Translations under genes and position numbers: made by a program | Shown: piece by piece, positions 26,498 to 37,178 of the stretch | How positions within the stretch are numbered: the first letter of the stretch is position 1 | Layout: each line of letters opens with the position of its first letter | Source: Shigella phage ESh16 | Reading direction: 5' to 3' (one strand) | Length of the DNA stretch: 64,000 nucleotides | Sequence record: ON528726 | Notes under the pieces: model-generated | Database searches by the model: none | What the model was told of the DNA's origin: nothing | The model's input: only the letters and a program-made list of their open reading frames with translations

Positions 26498-26806
26498 ATG
26501 AAACTGACGACTGAACAAAAAGTAGCAATTCGTGAAATTTTGAAAACTAAATTGTCCATGGGGGTTTCAAACGTAGTTTTTGAAAAGTCTGATGGTACTA
26601 TTCGTACTATGAAAGGCACTCGTGATGCGGACTTTATGCCAACCATGCAAACTGGTAAATTGACTGAATCTGCTCGGAAAGAATCTACTGATATGATTCC
26701 AGTATTTGATGTTGAGCTTGGCGTGTGGCGAGGTTTTTCTATTGACAAATTGATTTCCGTTAATGGTATGAAAGCTGAGCATTTGCTTCAATTTATTGGT
26801 AAATAA
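26498..26806 (+). CDS. 31.1: Hypothetical protein (102 aa)
   Basis: Position between cd and 31. Confidence 0.5.
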   Translation: MKLTTEQKVAIREILKTKLSMGVSNVVFEKSDGTIRTMKGTRDADFMPTMQTGKLTESARKESTDMIPVFDVELGVWRGFSIDKLISVNGMKAEHLLQFIGK

Positions 26807-26862
26807 ATGCTTTAAGAATTATTTGTTATTATTAATTCATCTGTTAACAAAAAGGAAAAATG

Positions 26863-27198
26863 ATGTCTGAAGTACAACAGCTACCAATTCGTGCTGTCGG
26901 TGAGTATGTTATTTTAGTTTCTGAACCTGCACAAGCCGGTGATGAAGAAGTTACAGAATCAGGACTTATTATCGGTAAACGTGTTCAAGGTGAAGTTCCT
27001 GAACTGTGTGTAGTTCACTCTGTTGGTCCTGATGTTCCTGAAGGTTTCTGTGAAGTTGGTGATTTGACTTCTCTTCCAGTTGGTCAAATTCGAAACGTTC
27101 CGCATCCTTTTGTAGCCTTGGGACTTAAGCAGCCAAAAGAAATTAAACAAAAATTCGTTACCTGTCACTATAAAGCTATTCCGTGTCTTTATAAGTGA
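26863..27198 (+). CDS. 31: Co-chaperonin gp31 (GroES analogue, 111 aa)
   Basis: [40 protein letters not shown]...; size. Confidence 0.93.
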
Positions 27199-27345
27199 TA
27201 TAAATAATAATATGAATTGGGTGTCGGAATAATAAGTTAACCGAACAATTCTACGTGGTAGTCTACAACTGAGAGATCTGTCGAAAGAAGATGAAATTCA
27301 GAAGAACGTGACTACCGAGTTTTAATCTCTAACGAGAATTTTTAA

Positions 27346-27594
27346 ATGATTAAACAATTACAACACGCTCTTGAACTGCAACGAAACGCATGGAATAATG
27401 GTCACGAAAACTATGGCGCATCTATTGATGTTGAAGCCGAAGCTCTTGAAATCCTGCGTTATTTCAAACATCTGAATCCTGCTCAAACTGCATTAGCCGC
27501 TGAGCTTCAGGAAAAAGATGAACTTAAATATGCTAAGCCTCTGGCTTCTGCTGCACGAAAAGCAGTTCGTCACTTTGTGGTAACACTGAAGTAA
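27346..27594 (+). CDS. rIII: rIII lysis-inhibition accessory protein (82 aa)
   Basis: Size and position after gene 31. Confidence 0.8.
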   Translation: MIKQLQHALELQRNAWNNGHENYGASIDVEAEALEILRYFKHLNPAQTALAAELQEKDELKYAKPLASAARKAVRHFVVTLK

Positions 27595-27990
27595 TTTATT
27601 GGAGATTCACTGCCTTAGTGTGAGCTAAAATCGAGGAGCCGTCGAACTGTCTGATTAATGATTTGCGAATCATTATAGTTTTAAGACCCCGGCAGTTTTA
27701 CGGTGTACCTCTTGAATGTTATTCTTATAGCGGCAAGTGCATGCTACCCCGAGGTGATGGCCAATCGGGAGTACGCCTCAAGGCCTATATATCCATCAGT
27801 ATATATCTTATCCTCGAGAAATCGAACCCGGAACCTTTAAGCTAACGGTGTGCAACAGATAAGAGCTATAAGGTATGTTGACGGGTTTATGGTTATCCTG
27901 TCGGTAAATATTCAAAACCTATGTTCCCCTTGAGGGCTTGCGCAGGCAATGCCAATAAGTCCTGCATTTTCATTTAAAAGAGAATTTATA

Positions 27991-28167
27991 ATGGCAAAAC
28001 AAGCTAAAGCAAAGAAAGCAGTTGAAAAGAAAGTTGGTGATTCTAAACGCGCTGGCTACAAGCGTGGGTCGAACTCTCGTATCAATCAAACTGTTGAGAA
28101 GATCATGCGCCGAGCACGTGCGGTTCTTCGAGATGATGCTTCTCGTTTTGGTAAGCAGAAAGCATAA
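27991..28167 (+). CDS. Small basic protein (58 aa), 30.9-like position
   Basis: MAKQAKAKKAVEKKVGDSKRAGYKRGS...; followed by a strong terminator. Confidence 0.55.
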   Translation: MAKQAKAKKAVEKKVGDSKRAGYKRGSNSRINQTVEKIMRRARAVLRDDASRFGKQKA

Positions 28168-28170
28168 GTT

Positions 28171-28200
28171 GAGGACTCCTTCGGGAGTCCTTTTTTATTT
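28171..28200 (+). terminator. Rho-independent terminator with CUUCGG loop
   Basis: gaggactccttcgggagtcc then ttttttatttt. Confidence 0.7.
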
Positions 28201-28220
28201 TCCAAAGATTGCACAAAGTT

Positions 28221-28250
28221 GTTTACAGCATGGTTCCTTTGTGATAGTAT
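28221..28250 (+). promoter_or_regulatory. Early promoter
   Basis: gtttacagcatggttcctttgtgatagtat: -35 GTTTACA, -10 TAGTAT. Confidence 0.5.
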
Positions 28251-28277
28251 TATCTTACACAAACAAAGGAGAATAAA

Positions 28278-28610
28278 ATGAAAACGATTAATCTGAACGC
28301 TGCAGTTAAAACTAAATGCTTCAACGGTAAATATGATGAAACTATGTGGTTCTTAATGGCAGTTGAAGGTGATATTATTGAAGTAGAAACAACAGAAGGT
28401 ATGGGAACAGATTTCACCTTTACAATTCAAGTTCATAATTTCTTTACTGGTTGGATTTATGAATTGAACACAGTAATCGTTGGAAAAATTGAACAAAATG
28501 AATTGGGTGAATGGTATTATGTTACAGCTCGCCAACGCGCCGAACGCTTAATTGAGAAGATGAAAAAAGTTGGTAAACTTGACATGCAGCACTGGAAAGT
28601 AGTAAAATAA
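28278..28610 (+). CDS. Hypothetical protein (110 aa), 30.8-like position
   Basis: AAGGAG RBS. Confidence 0.55.
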   Translation: MKTINLNAAVKTKCFNGKYDETMWFLMAVEGDIIEVETTEGMGTDFTFTIQVHNFFTGWIYELNTVIVGKIEQNELGEWYYVTARQRAERLIEKMKKVGKLDMQHWKVVK

Positions 28611-28612
28611 TT

Positions 28613-28641
28613 GTTTACTTTGGTACAGGATATGATATTAT
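28613..28641 (+). promoter_or_regulatory. Early promoter with stem-loop (PeSL-like)
   Basis: gtttactttggtacaggatatgatattatatacctgtacc: inverted repeat GGTACAGG/CCTGTACC across the -10. Confidence 0.5.
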
Positions 28642-28678
28642 ATACCTGTACCGCAATTAAACATCTCGGAGAATAAAA

Positions 28679-29044
28679 ATGAACTACATCAACTTTGAAC
28701 GTAAATATGTTTCTAATGGTATTGCAGGTTCTATTGATACTATTTGCCTTTGGAAACATCAAAATGGATCAGTATGCGAAATTGAACAGTATATGACTCC
28801 TAACTACGTTTATATGCGATTTGAAAATGGCATCACAGTTTCAATCACAATGGAAGGTTCCAACTTCAAAATCGCTTTGGATGATGATTTTCGTCAACGC
28901 GATTTAGGGACTCATCCTTGCTGGAATGGCGTTAATCGTAAGCTTCTGGTTAAAACTTGGATTCGTCATATTTTGAGTAACAGAGCTAAACCTGAGCATC
29001 TTGAAGCAATCTTTGATGTAGTTCTTAACGAATTTGATATTTAA
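28679..29044 (+). CDS. Hypothetical protein (121 aa), 30.7-like position
   Basis: GGAGAA RBS. Confidence 0.55.
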   Translation: MNYINFERKYVSNGIAGSIDTICLWKHQNGSVCEIEQYMTPNYVYMRFENGITVSITMEGSNFKIALDDDFRQRDLGTHPCWNGVNRKLLVKTWIRHILSNRAKPEHLEAIFDVVLNEFDI

Positions 29045-29085
29045 AATAAAATGAGGGGCTTCGGCCCCTCATTGAGGAAAATACT

Positions 29086-29373
29086 ATGTTTATGACTACT
29101 TATTTTGATACCCGTAAAAATTTCTGTGAAGTGGTTTTCTCTAAGGCGCCTAAAGACCTTCCTGCTCATTTGCAACCTACCAGTGAATCGATTAAAAACT
29201 ACGTTAATGCAGTCTGTCCTTTAGAGTTCCGTACAGTAAATGGGCGCGATACTTTAGCTATCGCTAAACTCAATCGTGAAATTGACATTGACCCTTCAAT
29301 TGCGCGTGAAATTAATATTTCTGATATTGGCGGAGGTAATGTTAAATCGCATGGTTTTCAGATGAGGTTCTAA
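29086..29373 (+). CDS. Hypothetical protein (95 aa), 30.6-like position
   Basis: ORF track; upstream hairpin gaggggcttcggcccctc. Confidence 0.5.
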   Translation: MFMTTYFDTRKNFCEVVFSKAPKDLPAHLQPTSESIKNYVNAVCPLEFRTVNGRDTLAIAKLNREIDIDPSIAREINISDIGGGNVKSHGFQMRF

Positions 29374-29570
29374 TGAAATTCTTTTTAGGTCAAACTGTTG
29401 AATTAAAGGGAGTTGGTATACCTGGATTAATTTCTAAGGTTTTACCTCCATTTAAATGGAGTGGTGTTCAAATAAAAGAGGCTTATATTGTTTCTTGGGT
29501 AGATGGAAATGAAGACCTTCGTATGGGCGATGAATTATCTCCTATTTACGGATTAAAGGAATTAGTATGA
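29373..29570 (+). CDS. Hypothetical protein (65 aa), 30.5-like position
   Basis: ORF track. Confidence 0.5.
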   Translation: MKFFLGQTVELKGVGIPGLISKVLPPFKWSGVQIKEAYIVSWVDGNEDLRMGDELSPIYGLKELV

Positions 29571-29773
29571 ATATAATTAATAAGATTTTTGGAATTCAGT
29601 ACATTAAGGTCACATATAAAGTAACGTATAAAGGTCCGTATACCGATGAATATGAAGAGCCACAAGTTCAGTCTATTATATTAGAAAAGGACCCTAACTG
29701 GCCAGTTGAATTTCGTCTTCCTTGCTATGGTCATTGGGCTGATGTTGAAATTATAAGTATTGAAAATGTCTGA
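29567..29773 (+). CDS. Hypothetical protein (68 aa), 30.4-like position
   Basis: ORF track. Confidence 0.5.
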   Translation: MNIINKIFGIQYIKVTYKVTYKGPYTDEYEEPQVQSIILEKDPNWPVEFRLPCYGHWADVEIISIENV

Positions 29774-30224
29774 GTTAGAGATTAGAAGCAATTTTAGATG
29801 GCCATCATGCGCATTAAGTAATTTCGCCCAATGGCCTTTTGTTATGGATGGTATCCAATTTGGAGGTCTCGAAGGATTCCTCCAAGGGTGTAAGGTGAAA
29901 AATGTTGAACAGCAACGTCGTATATTTGGGTTATCCGGGCTTGCCGCTCAACAAGCTGGAAGGTCTTATGCTAGAGCTCAGGACCGTGGGACCCTCTTCT
30001 GGCTTGGAGTTCCGTTTTCAAGATACTCTCCAGCGTGGAAAGAATTATATACAAATGCATATTTTGAAGCAGCGTTCCAAAACAAGGGCTTTCGTGATGC
30101 ATTACAAGCCTCGAAAGGAAAAGTTTTGAAGCACAGCATGGCTAATGGTCTAACAAAAGATGATACAATATTAACCGAAGCTGAATTTATTGATGTGTTA
30201 AACCTATTAAGAGACTCTCTATGA
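29760..30224 (+). CDS. NADAR/YbiA-like domain protein (154 aa), 30.3-like position
   Basis: Motif LSNFAQWPFVMDG...LEGF...K resembles the YbiA/NADAR core (FSNFAAWPIKVDG...SEHYFQAQK). Confidence 0.55.
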   Translation: MKMSELEIRSNFRWPSCALSNFAQWPFVMDGIQFGGLEGFLQGCKVKNVEQQRRIFGLSGLAAQQAGRSYARAQDRGTLFWLGVPFSRYSPAWKELYTNAYFEAAFQNKGFRDALQASKGKVLKHSMANGLTKDDTILTEAEFIDVLNLLRDSL

Positions 30225-31060
30225 AGCCTACTATTTTAACTGATATTGATGGAGTATGTTTAAGCTGGCAATCAGGTCTTCCTTATTTTGCTCAGAAATA
30301 TAATCTTCCGTTAGAACATATTTTAAAAATGATCCAAGATGAGAAATTTATTTCTCCAGGTAAACTCTTTAATTGTGATGAAGAACTCGGTGTCAAGCTA
30401 ATTGAAAAATACAATCGATCAGATTTTATTCGTTACTTGTCTCCATATAAAGATGCCCTGTGTGTAATTAACAAATTAAAAGAAGATTATAATTTTGTAG
30501 CTGTCACAGCATTGGGTGATTCTATTGACGCTCTGTTGAATCGTCAATTTAATTTGAATGCTCTTTTTCCTGGTGCCTTCTCAGAAGTAATGATGTGTGG
30601 TCATGATTCTTCAAAAGAAGAGTTGTTTAAAAAGGCAAAAGAGAAATATAACGTAATTTGTTATATTGACGATCTCGCTCATCACTGCGATCATGCGAGT
30701 GAAATATTAAATGTTCCTGTGTATTGGATGGCTCGAGGAGAGCGTGACAATATTCCAAAAACTGTCCAGCGAGTTTATACATGGAATGATATAGAAAATA
30801 AGCTTTTTTCACCAAAGGAAAATAAAGAAAGTTTTGATAGTGAAAAAGCTATAAAAGATTTAATTGAGAAGATGGTTAAAAACGATTCTTTTCCTTGGAA
30901 CACTACCTGGAGAACGCCTGGATTTAATCCTTATAATCATCTATATCATCCATATCAGACACATCCGTTTCAGACATGGAACTATATTAAACCTGGTGGC
31001 ATAGAGTATTTGTATAATAGACCTACTTGTGGTGATAATATTTTCCAAGGAGCATTCTAA
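30221..31060 (+). CDS. HAD-superfamily-like hydrolase (279 aa), 30.2-like position
   Basis: N-terminal motif ILTDIDGVCL (DxDG) and downstream YIDDL. Confidence 0.55.
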   Translation: MKPTILTDIDGVCLSWQSGLPYFAQKYNLPLEHILKMIQDEKFISPGKLFNCDEELGVKLIEKYNRSDFIRYLSPYKDALCVINKLKEDYNFVAVTALGDSIDALLNRQFNLNALFPGAFSEVMMCGHDSSKEELFKKAKEKYNVICYIDDLAHHCDHASEILNVPVYWMARGERDNIPKTVQRVYTWNDIENKLFSPKENKESFDSEKAIKDLIEKMVKNDSFPWNTTWRTPGFNPYNHLYHPYQTHPFQTWNYIKPGGIEYLYNRPTCGDNIFQGAF

Positions 31061-31329
31061 TGTTTGTCGTTCACACTATTTATGAAAATGAAGGTAATAC
31101 TACACGTGATTACGGTCACGTAAATCAATTTTTTAGATGCAATCCAGAATTCCGAGCTCAAAAAGACGAACGAATTTTTAAAAAATGTGTCGAGCAAGGT
31201 TTCATTTATATCAAGCACTGGATGCAAGGAAATAAAGTTAGAACTACATATCATAGGTCTTTAACTGAGCTTAATGATGAATTGATTTATAATAGAGCTG
31301 TAAATCAAACTCTGAAGGATGAACAATGA
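31060..31329 (+). CDS. Hypothetical protein (89 aa), 30.1-like position
   Basis: ORF track; coupled to gene 30. Confidence 0.5.
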   Translation: MFVVHTIYENEGNTTRDYGHVNQFFRCNPEFRAQKDERIFKKCVEQGFIYIKHWMQGNKVRTTYHRSLTELNDELIYNRAVNQTLKDEQ

Positions 31330-32786
31330 TTCTTAAAATTCTGAATGAAATAGCATCTATTGGATCAACTAAGCAGAAGCAAGCAATTCTTGAAAAGAAT
31401 AAAGATAATGAATTGCTTAAACGAGTATATCGTCTGACTTATTCTCGTGGGTTACAGTATTATATCAAGAAATGGCCTAAGCCTGGTATTGCTACCCAGA
31501 GTTTTGGAATGCTGACTATTACCGATATGCTTGACTTCATTGAATTCACGTTAGCTACTCGGAAATTGACTGGAAATGCTGCAATTGAGGAATTAACTGG
31601 ATATATCACCGATGGTAAAAAGGATGATGTTGAAGTTTTGCGTCGAGTTATGATGCGAGACCTTGAATGTGGTGCTTCAGTATCTATTGCAAACAAAGTT
31701 TGGCCAGGTTTAATTCCTGAACAACCTCAAATGTTGGCAAGTTCTTATGATGAAAAAGGCATTAGTAAGAATATCAAATTTCCAGCCTTTGCACAGTTAA
31801 AAGCAGATGGAGCTCGGTGTTTTGCTGAAGTCCGAGGTGATGAATTAGATGATGTTCGTCTTTTATCACGAGCTGGTAATGAATATCTAGGATTAGATCT
31901 TCTTAAGGAAGAATTAATCAAAATGACTGCTGAAGCCCGCCAGATTCATCCAGAAGGTGTGTTAATTGATGGCGAATTGGTATACCATGAGCAAGTTAAA
32001 AAGGAACCAGAAGGCCTAGATTTTCTTTTTGATACTCCTGAAAATAGTAAAGTTAAAGAGTTTGCCGAAGTAGCGGAATCTCGTACTACTTCTAATGGAA
32101 TCGCCAATAAATCTTTAAAGGGAACCATTTCTGAAAAAGAAGCTCAATGCATGAAGTTTCAGGTCTGGGATTATGTCCCGTTGGTAGAAATATACGGTCT
32201 TCCGGCGTTTCGTTTAAAATATGATGTACGTTTTTCTAAACTAGAACAAATGACATCAGGATATGATAAAGTAATTTTAATTGAAAACCAAGTAGTAAAT
32301 AACCTAGATGAAGCTAAGGTAATTTATAAAAAGTATATTGACCAAGGTCTTGAAGGTATTATTCTCAAAAATACCGATGGATTGTGGGAAAATGCTCGTT
32401 CAAAAAATCTTTATAAATTTAAAGAAGTAATTGATGTTGATTTAAAAATTGTAGGAATTTATCCTCACCGTAAAGACCCTACTAAAGCAGGTGGATTTAT
32501 TCTTGAATCAGAGTGTGGAAAAATTAAAGTAAATGCTGGTTCAGGCTTAAAAGATAAAGCCGGTGTAAAATCGCATGAACTTGACCGTACTCGCATTATG
32601 GAAAACCAAAATTATTATATTGGAAAAATTCTAGAATGTGAATGCAATGGTTGGTTAAAATCTGACGGCCGCACTGATTACGTTAAATTATTTCTTCCGA
32701 TTGCGATTCGTTTACGTGAAGATAAAACTAAAGCTAATACATTTGAGGATGTATTTGGTGATTTTCATGAGGTAACTGGTCTATGA
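31326..32786 (+). CDS. 30: ATP-dependent DNA ligase (486 aa)
   Basis: Adenylation motif QLKADGARCF (KxDG); MILKILNEIASIGSTKQKQAILEKN... Confidence 0.96.
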   Translation: MILKILNEIASIGSTKQKQAILEKNKDNELLKRVYRLTYSRGLQYYIKKWPKPGIATQSFGMLTITDMLDFIEFTLATRKLTGNAAIEELTGYITDGKKDDVEVLRRVMMRDLECGASVSIANKVWPGLIPEQPQMLASSYDEKGISKNIKFPAFAQLKADGARCFAEVRGDELDDVRLLSRAGNEYLGLDLLKEELIKMTAEARQIHPEGVLIDGELVYHEQVKKEPEGLDFLFDTPENSKVKEFAEVAESRTTSNGIANKSLKGTISEKEAQCMKFQVWDYVPLVEIYGLPAFRLKYDVRFSKLEQMTSGYDKVILIENQVVNNLDEAKVIYKKYIDQGLEGIILKNTDGLWENARSKNLYKFKEVIDVDLKIVGIYPHRKDPTKAGGFILESECGKIKVNAGSGLKDKAGVKSHELDRTRIMENQNYYIGKILECECNGWLKSDGRTDYVKLFLPIAIRLREDKTKANTFEDVFGDFHEVTGL

Positions 32787-32971
32787 AAGCTTACTTAGAA
32801 ACAATTGTCGTGGCTCAAAAAGAAGGTGGAGATGTTTCTACTTCTGTATCACAAATTATGATTGAATTTATAGATGCGTATGCTTATAATAAATTCACAG
32901 AAACATTTGATGCCTATGAAAAAGGTCCAAAGTTTGAAATATATCGTACTCTCTTACCAATAGATTATTAA
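32783..32971 (+). CDS. Hypothetical protein (62 aa)
   Basis: ORF track; overlaps ligase stop. Confidence 0.45.
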   Translation: MKAYLETIVVAQKEGGDVSTSVSQIMIEFIDAYAYNKFTETFDAYEKGPKFEIYRTLLPIDY

Positions 32972-32992
32972 AGGCCTTCGGGCCTTTAATTT

Positions 32993-33000
32993 TATAAATA
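32993..33000 (+). promoter_or_regulatory. Late promoter TATAAATA upstream of alt, preceded by a CUUCGG hairpin
   Basis: aaaggccttcgggccttt hairpin (32970-32987) then tataaata. Confidence 0.55.
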
Positions 33001-33023
33001 GAATAAACACTAGAGAGGATATG

Positions 33024-35117
33024 ATGGAACTCATTACAGAATTATTTGACGAAGATACTACTCTTCCGATTACAAACTTAAATCCAAAGAAGAAAATACC
33101 GCAAATTTTTTCAGTTCATGTTGATGACGCAATTGAACAACCAGGCTTTCGTTTATGTACTTATACATCTGGAGGTGATACTAATCGCGATTTAAAGATG
33201 GGCGATAAAATGATGCATATTGTTCCTTTTACATTAACTGCCAAAGGTTCAATTGCTAAATTAAAAGGTCTCGGTCCAAGCCCAATTAATTACATCAATT
33301 CAGTTTTTACTGTTGCGATGCAGACGATGCGTCAGTATAAAATTGATGCCTGCATGCTCCGTATTCTTAAGTCTAAAACTGCTGGTCAAGCTCGTCAAAT
33401 TCAACTTATTGCTGATAGACTTATCCGTAGTCGTTCAGGTGGCAGATACGTCCTTCTTAAGGAACTCTGGGATTACGATAAAAAGTATGCATATATTCTT
33501 ATACATCGCAAAAATGTATCATTAGAAGACATTCCAGGAGTTCCTGAAATTAGTACCGAGCTCTTTACTAAAGTTGAATCGAAGGTCGGTGATGTTTATA
33601 TCAATAAAGATACCGGAGCTCAAGTAACTAAAAATGAGGCAATTGCAGCATCTATTGCACAAGAAAACGATAAACGTTCTGACCAAGCTGTAATCGTTAA
33701 AGTTAAAATTTCCCGTAGAGCAATTGCACAAAGTCAGTCATTGGAATCTTCTAGATTTGAAAGTGAATTATTCCAAAAGTATGAATCTACCGCAGCTAAT
33801 TTCAATAAACCTGCTACAGCTCCTTTAATTCCCGAAGCAGAAGAAATGAAGCTTGGAATTAATTCATTAGCTTCTAAAACTAAGGCAGCAAAAATTATTG
33901 CTGAAGGAACTGCAGATGAACTTCATTATGACTATAAATTCTTTCCAATGAGTGAGGTTGGTGAAGTTTCTGAAAAAATTAAAGATGTAATTCTTAATGC
34001 GATTAAAAATGAACCAACTACTTCAATAAAATGTTTAGAAAAATACGCAGCAGCTGTTAATCAACTCTTTGAAGAATATAAAGATAAATGGCTTGATAAA
34101 CATAATAAAACCCGTAAAGGACAGCCAGATGAAGTCTGGGAAGAAATAACTAAAAATTCCTGGAACGCAGCAAAAACTAAATTCCTCAAACGAATGATTT
34201 ATAGCTTTTCTGGAATTGGTGCAGGTCCAATGATTGATATTACTATTGCCCGTGATGGTTCTAAATATACTCCATCACAAAAGCGCGGCATTAGAGAGTA
34301 TTGTGGTTCAGGATATACTGACATCAATAATCTTCTTTTAGGTCGCTACAATCCAGAACGATATGAGGTAATGAGTGAAAAAGAAATTGAATCTGCTATA
34401 AATAACTTAGATTCAGCTTTTGAAAATGGTGATCGTATACCAGAAGGCATTACAGTTTATCGTGCTCAAAGTATGACTGCTCCTATATACGAAGCACTAG
34501 TTAAAAATAAAGTGTTCTATTTCAGAAATTTTGTATCTACTTCTTTAACTCCTATCATTTTTGGACGTTTTGGAATTACACATGCTGGTATTGGTCTTTT
34601 AGAACCAGAAGCTCGTAATGAATTGACAGTTGATAAAAATGAAGAAGGAATAACTATTAATCCAAATGAAATAAGAGCGTATAAAGAAAATCCTGAATAC
34701 GTTAAAGTTCAAATAGGATGGGCAATTGATGGAGCTCATAAAGTTAATGTTGTATATCCAGGAAGTCTCGGAATAGCAACAGAAGCTGAAGTTATTCTAC
34801 CACGCGGATTGATGGTCAAAGTTAATAAAATAACTGATGCTTCTAATAACGACGGAACAACATCTAATAATACAAAACTCATTCAAGCTGAAGTTATGAC
34901 TACAGAAGAACTCACCGAATCAGTAATTTATGACGGTGACCGTCTAATGGAAACCGGTGAAGTAGTTGCAATGACAGGTGATATTGAAATAGAAGACAGA
35001 GTTGACTTTGCATCATTTGTTTCATCAAATGTTAAACAAAAAGTAGAATCATCTCTTGGAATTATTGCGTCTTGCATAGATATTACAAACATGCCTTACA
35101 AGTTCGTTCAAGGATAA
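33024..35117 (+). CDS. alt: Alt-like ADP-ribosyltransferase, copy 1 (697 aa)
   Basis: N-terminus MELITELFD; C-terminal ART motifs YRAQ (Arg), FVSTSL (STS), EAEVILPRG (Glu). Confidence 0.85.
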   Translation: MELITELFDEDTTLPITNLNPKKKIPQIFSVHVDDAIEQPGFRLCTYTSGGDTNRDLKMGDKMMHIVPFTLTAKGSIAKLKGLGPSPINYINSVFTVAMQTMRQYKIDACMLRILKSKTAGQARQIQLIADRLIRSRSGGRYVLLKELWDYDKKYAYILIHRKNVSLEDIPGVPEISTELFTKVESKVGDVYINKDTGAQVTKNEAIAASIAQENDKRSDQAVIVKVKISRRAIAQSQSLESSRFESELFQKYESTAANFNKPATAPLIPEAEEMKLGINSLASKTKAAKIIAEGTADELHYDYKFFPMSEVGEVSEKIKDVILNAIKNEPTTSIKCLEKYAAAVNQLFEEYKDKWLDKHNKTRKGQPDEVWEEITKNSWNAAKTKFLKRMIYSFSGIGAGPMIDITIARDGSKYTPSQKRGIREYCGSGYTDINNLLLGRYNPERYEVMSEKEIESAINNLDSAFENGDRIPEGITVYRAQSMTAPIYEALVKNKVFYFRNFVSTSLTPIIFGRFGITHAGIGLLEPEARNELTVDKNEEGITINPNEIRAYKENPEYVKVQIGWAIDGAHKVNVVYPGSLGIATEAEVILPRGLMVKVNKITDASNNDGTTSNNTKLIQAEVMTTEELTESVIYDGDRLMETGEVVAMTGDIEIEDRVDFASFVSSNVKQKVESSLGIIASCIDITNMPYKFVQG

Positions 35118-35120
35118 ATC

Positions 35121-37178
35121 ATGGAACTTATTACAGAATTATTTGACGGCGCTTCGGCGCCGGTTATTAACTTAAATCCTAAGCATAAAATACCTCAAAT
35201 TTTTGCTATTCAAGCCGGTGAAGAAAGCGTGCTTCCTGGATTTAGATTTTGTACATACACCTCTGGCGGTGATACAAATAAAAACGTTAAGCCAGGCGAT
35301 AAAATGATGCATATCGTAATGATAGGTGTTAATGAGAAACTATCATTAGTTAAACTTAAAAACTTGGGTGGAAATCCAATTGGTGTCATTAATGCTGTTT
35401 TTGATACTGCTCTTCAAACAATGAAACAGTATAAAATTGATGCATGCTTATTCCGCGTACTAAAAAGTAAAACAAATGGCGCTGCTCGTCAAATGCAAGT
35501 TATTGCTGACCGTTTAGTACGTACTAAAGGAGCAGGTCGATATGTTCTTTTAAAGGAAATCTGGGATTACGATAAAAAGTATGCATATATTATGGTTTAC
35601 CGTAAAAATGCCAATTTAGAAGACATTCCAGGTGTACCTCCTATTTCAACTGAGTTATTCACAAAAGTTGAATCAAAGGTTGGTGATGTTTATGTAGATG
35701 TCAAAACAGGTAATGCTGTTCCTAAAGCTGTTGCTGTTGCTGCTTCTATTGCTTTAGAAAATGATAAGCGCACGGATCAAGCTGTTATTCAGAAAACTAA
35801 AATTAGTCGTCGATTAGCAGCACAAGCTCAATATTCTACTGTCGATGCTTCACTCCAGGGCGATAGCTTCGCTGCTAAGAAATATCAAGAGTTTGAATCT
35901 AAAGTTCCGGTATATAAAGCAGAAGGACCAATGAACTCTGGCGTTATTCAGATTGGTTCAAACTTCGGCAAAGGAGCTATCGGTGGTATGAGAAGTGCTT
36001 CTCGTTTTAAATCTAACGATTATGAACTAGAAAGCTTCCGAAATCATATTGCATTGGCCCATGCACGTTTACGTGATCCGTCTATCAGACTGCAGAGCGA
36101 TATAACACATCAAGGTTCTCAAGAATATTTAAAGAATAAAGAATTCTTTGATTATAAAACCGATAAAATTTTGAGCGATCTCGCTGACATTAATATTTCT
36201 AATAGCTTTGATGTTATTAAGAAAATTATCAATGATTTAGTTAAAGGTTCTAAAGCCACACCAGACGAAAAGGTAGCTATTATTCAATTTGTCATGAATG
36301 GCATTTATAAATTGATTAATGAATCTGCTGCTCAGGCATATGAATACGCAAGCACCGAAGTAACTCCAAAAGGACTGACTCAGGCTGAGTCTGATGTAAT
36401 TGAAGATTATTGTGCAGATTCATATGTTGAAATGAACTCGTTCCTTTTAGGTAAACCAGATTCTACCCGTGAAGAATACATGGAACGAGCTATTAAACAC
36501 ATCGAGACGCTGGATTCTGCATTCGCCAAAGGATCAGTTCTTCCTCCAGGAACTACGCTTTATCGTGGACAAGAAGTTACTTTTAAAACTTTACGCCATA
36601 ATATTGAAAATAAAATGTTCTATTTCAAGAACTTCGTATCAACATCGCTTAAACCAAATATCTTCGGTGAGCATGGTAAAAACTATATGGCTCTAGATGA
36701 TTCCGGCGCAGTATTTTCTGGTGAAGGAGAAGGTTCTGTTGATGCTGAAGATTTAATGCATATGGGCAGTCATTCTGCTTATGCGAATGAAGATGCTGAA
36801 ACTAGCGTAGGTATGGTAATTAAAGGGGCTGAGCGAATCAAAGTTATCGTTCCAGGTCATTTATCAGGATTTCCATCAGAAGCTGAAGTTATTCTACCGC
36901 GTGGAATTTTGCTGAAGATTAATAAAGTAAGCACGTACATGATGAAAGAAACTGCTTATAACAAGTATCTAATCGAAGGCACAATCGTTCCTCCTTCTGA
37001 ACAATTAGAAGAATCGGTATATGATGGCGATCATCTAATGGAAACTGGTGAAGTTCGTCCAATGGCTGGGTTTAATCAATTCCTTATAGAAGAATCAAAA
37101 GAAGAGGAAAACGAAGTTTCTCAAATCTTGGCTTCTTTGGTTAACATCAACGGAATGTCTAAAAAGTTCAAGATGTAG
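35121..37178 (+). CDS. Alt-like ADP-ribosyltransferase paralog, copy 2 (685 aa)
   Basis: Same N-terminal about 230 aa architecture and C-terminal YRGQ / FVSTSL / EAEVILPRG motifs; central region divergent. Confidence 0.8.
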   Translation: MELITELFDGASAPVINLNPKHKIPQIFAIQAGEESVLPGFRFCTYTSGGDTNKNVKPGDKMMHIVMIGVNEKLSLVKLKNLGGNPIGVINAVFDTALQTMKQYKIDACLFRVLKSKTNGAARQMQVIADRLVRTKGAGRYVLLKEIWDYDKKYAYIMVYRKNANLEDIPGVPPISTELFTKVESKVGDVYVDVKTGNAVPKAVAVAASIALENDKRTDQAVIQKTKISRRLAAQAQYSTVDASLQGDSFAAKKYQEFESKVPVYKAEGPMNSGVIQIGSNFGKGAIGGMRSASRFKSNDYELESFRNHIALAHARLRDPSIRLQSDITHQGSQEYLKNKEFFDYKTDKILSDLADINISNSFDVIKKIINDLVKGSKATPDEKVAIIQFVMNGIYKLINESAAQAYEYASTEVTPKGLTQAESDVIEDYCADSYVEMNSFLLGKPDSTREEYMERAIKHIETLDSAFAKGSVLPPGTTLYRGQEVTFKTLRHNIENKMFYFKNFVSTSLKPNIFGEHGKNYMALDDSGAVFSGEGEGSVDAEDLMHMGSHSAYANEDAETSVGMVIKGAERIKVIVPGHLSGFPSEAEVILPRGILLKINKVSTYMMKETAYNKYLIEGTIVPPSEQLEESVYDGDHLMETGEVRPMAGFNQFLIEESKEEENEVSQILASLVNINGMSKKFKM

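Follow-up and report, generated by a model that had tools for sequence, protein, structure and literature searches.

In Shigella phage ESh16 (ON528726), a gene for a putative NADAR/YbiA-like protein lies directly upstream of a gene for a putative HAD-like hydrolase, in a region that also encodes Alt-type ADP-ribosyltransferases. Do the two proteins work as a pair against ADP-ribosylation, including that of host defenses such as DarT, as a first-pass annotation of the sequence proposed, or does only one of them have that role? We approached this question through a 64,000-nt stretch of the phage DNA (the window, to which all positions refer), surveys of related loci, and published work on T4. 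Our answer is that gene 30.3 very probably encodes the anti-DarT1 enzyme AdfN and gene 30.2 a coupled, capped HAD phosphomonoesterase that is dispensable for the anti-DarTG1 function.

Gene 30.3 and the NADAR superfamily

The phage is of the T4 type (Tequatrovirus). From base 29000 to base 32000 the sequence matches Shigella phage ESh34 at 100% identity and hundreds of T4-type genomes at 97 to 98%. On the plus strand the genes run in the order 31, rIII, 30.9 through 30.4, 30.3, 30.2, 30.1, 30 (ligase), alt.1, and two alt genes, and the order from 31 to alt is that of the T4 annotation (Table 1). The first-pass placement of the two ORFs in the 30.3 and 30.2 slots, about 2 kb upstream of the Alt genes (which begin at 33021), agrees with this. 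Genes 30.6 to alt.1 are tightly packed, with stop codons that overlap start codons. At the junction of 30.3 and 30.2 the two codons share an ATGA (30221-30224), an arrangement that points to translational coupling of 30.2 to 30.3. A promoter and terminator scan of 26500 to 33200 gave counts no higher than in shuffled sequence, and we therefore do not claim operon boundaries.

Table 1. Genes, catalytic residues, and motifs of the 30.4-to-alt region in the window
Feature	Position	Strand	Assignment	Basis
Gene 30.4	29567..29773	+	68 aa; overlaps adfN start	ORF, PHROG 2042, T4 annotation
Gene 30.3 (adfN)	29766..30224	+	152-aa NADAR-fold ADP-ribosylglycohydrolase of the phage gp30.3 subclass (function predicted from T4)	T4 identity, PF08010, AF2 model, Foldseek
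gp30.3 Glu36 (codon GAA)	29871..29873	+	Catalytic glutamate	Invariant in 57 diverse family members
gp30.3 Lys43 (codon AAG)	29892..29894	+	Catalytic lysine	Invariant in 57 members
gp30.3 His123 (codon CAC)	30132..30134	+	Last beta-strand	At least 90% conserved in family alignment
AdfN C-terminal helix (about aa 138-152)	30177..30221	+	Intact	Model helix H140-153, full-length T4 alignment
Gene 30.2	30221..31060	+	279 aa; HAD-superfamily hydrolase domain and disordered tail of about 80 aa	
gp30.2 HAD motif I (D8-I-D10)	30242..30250	+	Nucleophile and general acid/base	D8, D10, and G11 invariant in 22 homologues
gp30.2 HAD motif II (Thr96)	30506..30508	+		Nearly invariant in homologue alignment
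gp30.2 HAD motif III (Lys132)	30614..30616	+		Invariant in homologue alignment
gp30.2 HAD motif IV (Asp150-Asp151)	30668..30673	+	Mg2+ ligands	Invariant in homologue alignment
Genes 30.1 (DUF3045) and 30 (DNA ligase)	31060..32786	+	Downstream of 30.2	ORFs, Pfam, T4 annotation
Two alt genes	33021..37178	+	Full-length Alt-type ADP-ribosyltransferase paralogues (698 and 685 aa)	ORFs, Alt after ligase in related loci

The 154-aa ORF of the first-pass annotation is present on the plus strand, but its TTG start at 29760 comes from the ORF list; the true start is the ATG at 29766 (within ATGTCTGA). This gives a 152-aa product beginning MSELEIRSNF and an 8-nt overlap with the 30.4 stop. The protein aligns end to end with T4 gp30.3 and is identical to it at 149 of 152 positions (98%). 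The only three substitutions (I104F, I125M, and S127N) fall at no known catalytic position. Length, E36, K43, H123, the C-terminal helix, and the slot between 30.4 and 30.2 are all as in T4 AdfN; the protein is full length and keeps its helix, unlike the RB69-type truncation.

We then asked whether gp30.3 is a NADAR protein. It matches the Pfam family PF08010 (Phage_30_3; E=1.2e-69). However, it has no match to the Pfam NADAR family (PF08719) at E values up to 1, and the first-pass annotation would have read a missing match as evidence against its own assignment. There was also no match in NCBIfam, and a single-sequence phmmer search of the PDB returned only noise. A profile of nine gp30.3 family sequences placed E. 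coli YbiA first in the PDB at a subsignificant E value of 0.06, with an alignment that spans LSNFA.WP..DG....EGFLQ..K in the phage family and FSNFAAWP..DG....SEHYFQAQK in YbiA. An exhaustive profile search yielded 1,455 cluster representatives of the gp30.3 family, from which we sampled 57 diverse members, mostly multidomain. All 57 matched PF08010, and 18 of them also matched PF08719 (best E value, 1.2e-6; all under the gathering score). Therefore, the two Pfam families are bridged by sequence.

Structure prediction led to the same superfamily. An AF2 model of gp30.3 (pLDDT, 81.5; pTM, 0.81) was compared with the PDB by Foldseek, and the top three matches were YbiA (2b3w; E=7e-5), a G. lovleyi NADAR (8bat), and a P. 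nicotianae (Phytophthora) NADAR (8bau). These are the three solved NADARs and the only PDB matches with a probability of at least 0.95, and the fold TM-scores are moderate (0.44 to 0.55). Because gp30.3 has no direct PF08719 match, its NADAR membership rests on the bridging relatives and the fold. Together with the catalytic residues, they override the missing match, and we conclude that gp30.3 is a NADAR-superfamily enzyme.

The NADAR/YbiA core motif noticed in the first-pass annotation is there, as LSNFAQWPFVMDG and LEGFLQGCK. E36 and K43 align with the Glu/Lys pair of the YbiA segment SEHYFQAQK (E-x-(F/Y)-x-Q-x-x-K), and the catalytic roles of the NADAR Glu and Lys have been described (PMC11543638 and PMC11825919). 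The first-pass suggestion to examine the catalytic residues was borne out: the Glu and Lys do not vary among the 57 relatives, and conservation of H123 reaches at least 90%. In the model, which is numbered from the TTG start, H123 is held by strand E122-125. The residue on this last strand is His in phage gp30.3-class NADARs, Glu in the YbiA family, and Asp in DarT1-linked NADARs (PMC11125620 and PMC11543638). YbiA is thus the best match to gp30.3 by both fold and profile, with FSNFAAWP..DG....SEHYFQAQK corresponding to LSNFAQWP..DG....LEGFLQGCK, but the two proteins are only about 20% identical and YbiA has the last-strand Glu. YbiA is an N-glycosidase of riboflavin intermediates, a physiological role different from that of gp30.3.

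AdfN function and its T-even context

Phage NADARs were listed earlier by Schuller et al. in 2023 (PMC11543638) and by Iyer et al. in 2022. The latter study described the T4-like NADARs as early genes that are expressed together with ADP-ribosyltransferases. A 2024 paper in Toxins reported that T4 gp30.3 removes ADP-ribose from guanine, but not from thymine, in DNA in vitro (PMC11125620). In T-even phages, resistance to DarTG1 was traced to 30.3 by Johannesman et al. (Nat Commun 2025), who gave the gene its new name, adfN (PMC11825919). In that work, deletion of adfN made T4 sensitive to DarTG1, as demonstrated by deletion and complementation, and purified T4 AdfN de-ADP-ribosylated DNA. Activity was impaired by E36A and K43A, and it required the C-terminal helix: a natural RB69 allele without the helix was inactive. 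The first-pass annotation considered both slots uncharacterized. This does not hold for 30.3, which has been adfN since 2024/25, although it does hold for 30.2, for which we found no published function. Its proposal that the NADAR protein reverses guanine ADP-ribosylation and counters DarT has been published for the 98% identical T4 orthologue (PMC11825919 and PMC11125620). Therefore, it is already established that a phage NADAR undoes DNA ADP-ribosylation, and 30.3 adds no new biology here.

The mechanism would be as follows. During infection, the host toxin DarT1 would put ADP-ribose on the N2 of guanine in DNA. AdfN, acting as a stand-alone NADAR-fold enzyme, would hydrolyze the N-glycosidic bond between ADP-ribose and guanine N2. 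This would release ADP-ribose, restore guanine, and let the phage replicate in DarTG1 hosts. From the 98% identity, we infer the same activity and phenotype for the protein encoded here. The allele should be functional, judging from its full length and its retention of E36, K43, H123, and the C-terminal helix. A phage carrying an intact adfN should resist DarTG1-type defense as T4 does, and annotation of intact adfN genes helps to predict the host range of therapeutic T4-like phages.

T4 AdfN had no antitoxin effect in uninfected cells and barely rescued non-T-even phages, and its authors proposed that it depends on a further T-even protein (PMC11825919). T4 AdfN thus gives protection only in T-even infections, a dependence that the mechanism above does not account for. 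The lack of an antitoxin effect in uninfected cells also sets the phage protein (from T4) apart from the NADAR antitoxins associated with DarG1/DarT1 (E. coli C7 and G. lovleyi 8bat; PMC11543638). Those proteins have the fold and the Glu/Lys pair in common with gp30.3 and, going by the T4 gp30.3 data, guanine-N2-ADP-ribose hydrolysis as well. However, their third catalytic residue is Asp, whereas that of gp30.3 is His, and they are about 190 to 220 aa long, whereas gp30.3 has 152 aa and is an orphan, unlinked to any DarT.

T4 transposon sequencing in the HIDEN-SEQ preprint compares control and DarTG1 conditions. In the rows of that comparison that we examined, 30.3 was strongly depleted (log2 fold change, -7.25; adjusted P, 0), and the only other significant gene was 30.4 (log2 fold change, -1.79; adjusted P, 0.014). 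The 3' end of 30.4 contains the adfN start, so this second depletion is most simply explained by a polar or coupling effect. The evidence does not support a cofactor role for gp30.4. We also considered gp30.4 as a partner in a NADAR cassette, and phmmer found it only where a NADAR gene abuts 30.2. However, a locus without a NADAR gene (L060) has a weakly similar ORF, and we therefore do not claim such a partnership.

The HAD hydrolase gp30.2 and its neighborhood

gp30.2 is identical to its T4 counterpart at 270 of 279 positions (97%) and matches PHROG 420 (E=4.5e-93). Searches of Pfam and NCBIfam gave no match, and a single-sequence phmmer search of the PDB gave only noise. The HAD motifs reported in the first-pass annotation, DIDGV (D8/D10) and YIDDL (D150/D151), are both present. 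In an alignment of 22 homologues, the most distant at 35% identity, D8, D10, G11, K132, D150, and D151 do not vary, and T96 hardly does. By sequence, gp30.2 thus carries the complete HAD set (DxD, S/T, K, and (D/E)D). Its model is very confident for residues 1 to 190, where a four-helix cap is inserted into a Rossmannoid core after motif I and before motif II. The HAD domain extends from aa 1 to about 197, the helical C1 cap occupies aa 16 to 75, and the last 80 or so aa are disordered. A conserved GIEYLxxQPT motif lies toward the C terminus.

A gp30.2 family profile found a 5'(3')-deoxyribonucleotidase (2jao) as its top PDB match (E=0.013). Compared with NT5C-type 5'(3')-deoxyribonucleotidases (cdN/mdN and S. 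epidermidis 3bwv), gp30.2 has no PF06941 match, is 15 to 20% identical, and has the extra C-terminal tail. We conclude that gp30.2 is a HAD hydrolase by fold, that its catalytic set is intact, and that it probably stands closest to the NT5C-type enzymes. Capped HAD enzymes typically act on small molecules, whereas polynucleotide phosphatases have no cap. The helical cap therefore makes a small phosphorylated substrate most likely for gp30.2, and gp30.2 itself is most likely a Mg2+-dependent HAD phosphomonoesterase. By analogy with NT5C, our best guess for the substrate is a (deoxy)nucleoside monophosphate. Literature searches on the function of gp30.2 or of phage deoxyribonucleotidases found nothing relevant.

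If 30.2 worked with adfN against DarTG1, its disruption should matter in DarTG1 hosts. Among the HIDEN-SEQ rows examined, however, 30.2 was neutral (log2 fold change, -0.12; P=0.61; 71 insertion sites), as were alt (-0.01), nudE (-0.03), pseT (0.01), modA, and modB. Both 30.2 and 30.3 are nonessential on K-12 in T4 transposon sequencing, and the main text of the preprint names 30.2 as a hit for no condition. Therefore, 30.2 is not required for the anti-DarTG1 function of AdfN, and by the transposon data it is not the missing T-even factor.

We extended the analysis to the neighborhoods of gp30.2 relatives in 80 IMG/VR loci, of which 24 are informative T4-like loci and 55 are distant marine loci. 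The gene 30.2 lies directly upstream of the ligase gene, with or without 30.1 in between, in all 24 T4-like loci, and Alt follows in 22. However, only 10 of the 24 have a NADAR gene within 8 kb upstream of 30.2, and in only four, all T-even-like, does it directly abut 30.2. T4-like loci without a NADAR gene keep the backbone 30.7-30.5-30.2-30.1-30. None of the 55 marine loci has a NADAR, ligase, or Alt gene nearby; their neighbors are heterogeneous (the largest family occurs in 12 of 55) and give no functional clue. At the level of phage records, the 30.3 and 30.2 families occur in 1,510 and 1,456, with almost equal genus distributions, but this may reflect only shared Straboviridae gene content. 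Thus, the adjacency of adfN and 30.2 is a T-even feature and not a conserved operon. On the transposon data and the 10-of-24 count, the first-pass idea of a NADAR-phosphatase pair against DarT is not supported.

NADAR-NT5C fusions and alternative readings

Some gp30.3-type NADARs carry a C-terminal NT5C domain; one of them (P0133) reaches 61 bits against PF06941, and another (P0140) is marginal. We scanned one genome per species and obtained 53 loci, nearly all from gut or rumen Bacteroidales; 27 of these have a fused ORF. The fusions (loci L004 to L039) match PF08010 at E values of 1e-38 to 1e-49, and the HAD domain follows, which is the order of T4 genes 30.3 and 30.2. The HAD motifs are mostly intact, except that the second Asp is lost in a Segatella copri clade. 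A gp30.2 family HMM did not match the best 147 representatives of the gp30.3 family. The fused HAD domains are therefore too distant for plain HMMER, and we turned to hhalign, which aligned the HAD domain of gp30.2 with the NT5C domain of the fusions (probability, 91.6%; E=8e-7) over a common DxDGVLxx(F/W)xSGL. A search of IMG/VR for the fusion yielded a single locus, which matched the NT5C half alone. The fetched flanks contain ADP-ribosylglycohydrolase genes (PF03747) at 16 of the 53 loci and Nudix genes, including an NrtR-type regulator, at about nine, whereas the T4 genes adjoin ligase and Alt. The fusions also differ from the phage pair in being single bacterial polypeptides with a clear NT5C domain, whose cap is shorter than that of gp30.2. 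In the manner of a Rosetta stone, they give a hint that one ADP-ribose-related pathway can include both a NADAR of this type and an NT5C-type phosphatase. That hint is weakened because, among the 57 family members, gp30.3-type NADARs are also fused to many unrelated domains, among them DUF6939, ASCH, LRR, and lipase.

The fusions bear on the main alternative, a functional NADAR-HAD module. In it, gp30.2 would process a phosphorylated compound that the ADP-ribose removal pathway produces or consumes. This could be ribose-5-phosphate or AMP (made by a Nudix enzyme from released ADP-ribose) or ADP-ribosylated dGMP, and the module would aid ADP-ribose detoxification or act on defenses other than DarTG1. 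It is in keeping with the overlapping ATGA of T-even phages, the nearly matching genera of the two families in about 1,500 phage records, and the fusions, with their T4 gene order, largely intact motifs, hhalign link, and ADP-ribosylglycohydrolase and Nudix/NrtR neighbors. However, the product of NADAR hydrolysis, ADP-ribose, contains no phosphomonoester. In addition, 30.2 was neutral under DarTG1 in the rows examined, 14 of the 24 T4-like loci and all 55 marine loci have no NADAR gene within 8 kb, the co-occurrence may reflect only shared gene content, and NADARs of this type have many other fusion partners. We therefore regard a module as unlikely. A broader version is also doubtful. It would have an old, recurrent two-step module of a gp30.3-type NADAR and an NT5C-like HAD that removes ADP-ribose adducts and the phosphorylated products of their breakdown, the two proteins being separate but coupled in T-even phages and fused in gut Bacteroidales. 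gp30.2, or possibly gp30.4, would then be part of the T-even-specific requirement of AdfN or would extend protection to other ADP-ribose- or NAD-based defenses.

Two other readings start from the genes downstream. gp30.2 might be an accessory of DNA ligase, such as a DNA 3'-phosphatase that cleans up the ends at nicks so that they can be sealed. Its constant place before the ligase gene in T4-like loci would fit, as would a weak PHROG match to polynucleotide kinase, which has a HAD phosphatase domain (E=0.0022). However, a four-helix C1 cap covers the active site in the gp30.2 model, the distant marine homologues have no ligase nearby, ligase is essential whereas 30.2 is not, and T4 already has the PseT 3'-phosphatase; we find this role very improbable. 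Alternatively, the proximity of alt might be functional, and the NADAR might have a second and principal role tied to the phage enzymes Alt, ModA, and ModB, for example by reversing off-target ADP-ribosylation or RNAylation. Alt does follow the ligase in nearly all T4-like loci, and the report of Iyer et al. on T4-like NADARs agrees with such a link. Against it, the published activity is specific to guanine-linked ADP-ribose in DNA, and elsewhere among T4-like phages alt and the NADAR gene often lie far apart. In the HIDEN-SEQ rows examined, alt, modA, and modB were neutral under DarTG1 and 30.3 was nonessential without it. An Alt-linked role is thus most improbable, and we favor an AdfN that acts against DarT1 next to a coupled phosphomonoesterase with a separate task.

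With 30.3 explained by AdfN, the locus is otherwise ordinary in its novelty, and the remaining interest lies in gp30.2 and the NADAR-NT5C fusions. The gp30.2 phosphatase family is catalytically intact and widespread, with about 1,450 phage records. The fusions are a new lead from the present analysis, and a concrete one on a possible link between NADARs and phosphatases. A few GenBank records already label members of the gp30.2 family as a HAD-like hydrolase or a 5'(3')-deoxyribonucleotidase.

Gene 30.4 under DarTG1 selection

In the published T4 transposon data, gene 30.4 was significantly depleted under DarTG1 (log2FC -1.79, adjusted p 0.014), and among the rows of that table covered here it was the only gene besides 30.3 for which this was so. 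Because 30.4 overlaps the start of adfN, the depletion is likely to be a polar effect on adfN. 30.4 could also be a candidate for the proposed T-even factor needed by AdfN. With phmmer, 30.4 was matched in only four loci, those in which a NADAR gene abuts 30.2. An ORF weakly similar to 30.4 was found at 6770-6967 of L060, a phage locus without a NADAR gene.

Features of the window and of the bacterial loci
Feature	Location	Details
Gene 30.4	29567-29773	overlaps adfN start
ORF 30.3'	29902-30129	inside gene 30.3, out of frame; 75 aa, ATG start
gp30.2 disordered tail	30812-31057	otherwise variable; low confidence in model
gp30.2 tail motif	30992-31027	aa 258-269; reads PGGIEYLYNRPT
Alt-type ADP-ribosyltransferase paralogue 1	33021-35117	698 aa, full-length
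Alt-type ADP-ribosyltransferase paralogue 2	35121-37178	685 aa, full-length; tandem with paralogue 1
Bacteroidales fusion neighbours	L005 2406-4686	
Bacteroidales fusion neighbours	L010 6209-7411	
Bacteroidales fusion neighbours	L025 6023-7117	
Bacteroidales fusion neighbours	L007 6097-6618	

The gp30.2 tail and other genes of the window

Within the C-terminal tail of gp30.2 there is a short conserved motif, G-(T/G)-G-I-E-Y-L-x-x-Q-P-T. Among 57 long homologues, 15-16 have this motif, and these belong to several phage genera. The motif resembles a docking site. T4 has a single alt gene and the remnants alt.-1 and alt.-2, whereas the window has two full-length tandem Alt paralogues; two copies also occur in several related loci. 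The 30.3' frame annotated in T4 is kept open in the window.

Architectures of the gp30.3 family

We looked at the architecture of gp30.3-family representatives P0123-P0269, with fusions counted among 57. Many close phage relatives of gp30.3 (e.g., P0123, P0125, and P0126) are about 290 aa long and have their NADAR domain C-terminally, in the second half of the protein; the PHROG 652 profile has a length of 296. Further fusion partners were DUF6939 (6/57), ASCH (3/57), and LRR (3/57), with single cases of a dual-specificity phosphatase domain and an alpha/beta hydrolase (1/57 each). A published construct named "E. coli T4 phage NADAR (gp30.3)" comprises residues 1-208 (Toxins 2024 methods; PMC11125620), whereas T4 gp30.3 and the window protein are both 152 aa. 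Therefore, the protein assayed in that study may have come from another T4-like phage or carried extra sequence.

NADAR-NT5C fusions of gut Bacteroidales

In gut Bacteroidales, genes for NADAR-NT5C fusions have ADP-ribosylglycohydrolase (PF03747) and Nudix genes as neighbours, one of the latter encoding an NrtR-type Nudix/winged-helix regulator. This neighbourhood suggests an ADP-ribose-responsive gene cluster. The phosphatase half of the fusions may be inactive in some lineages. In Segatella copri and relatives (loci L016-L022), HAD motif I is DMGG rather than DMDG, and therefore the general acid/base Asp is lost; motif IV (IDDRG) is retained. The HAD half is more degenerate in the family representative P0140 and in the group of fusions from L026, L027, and L029.
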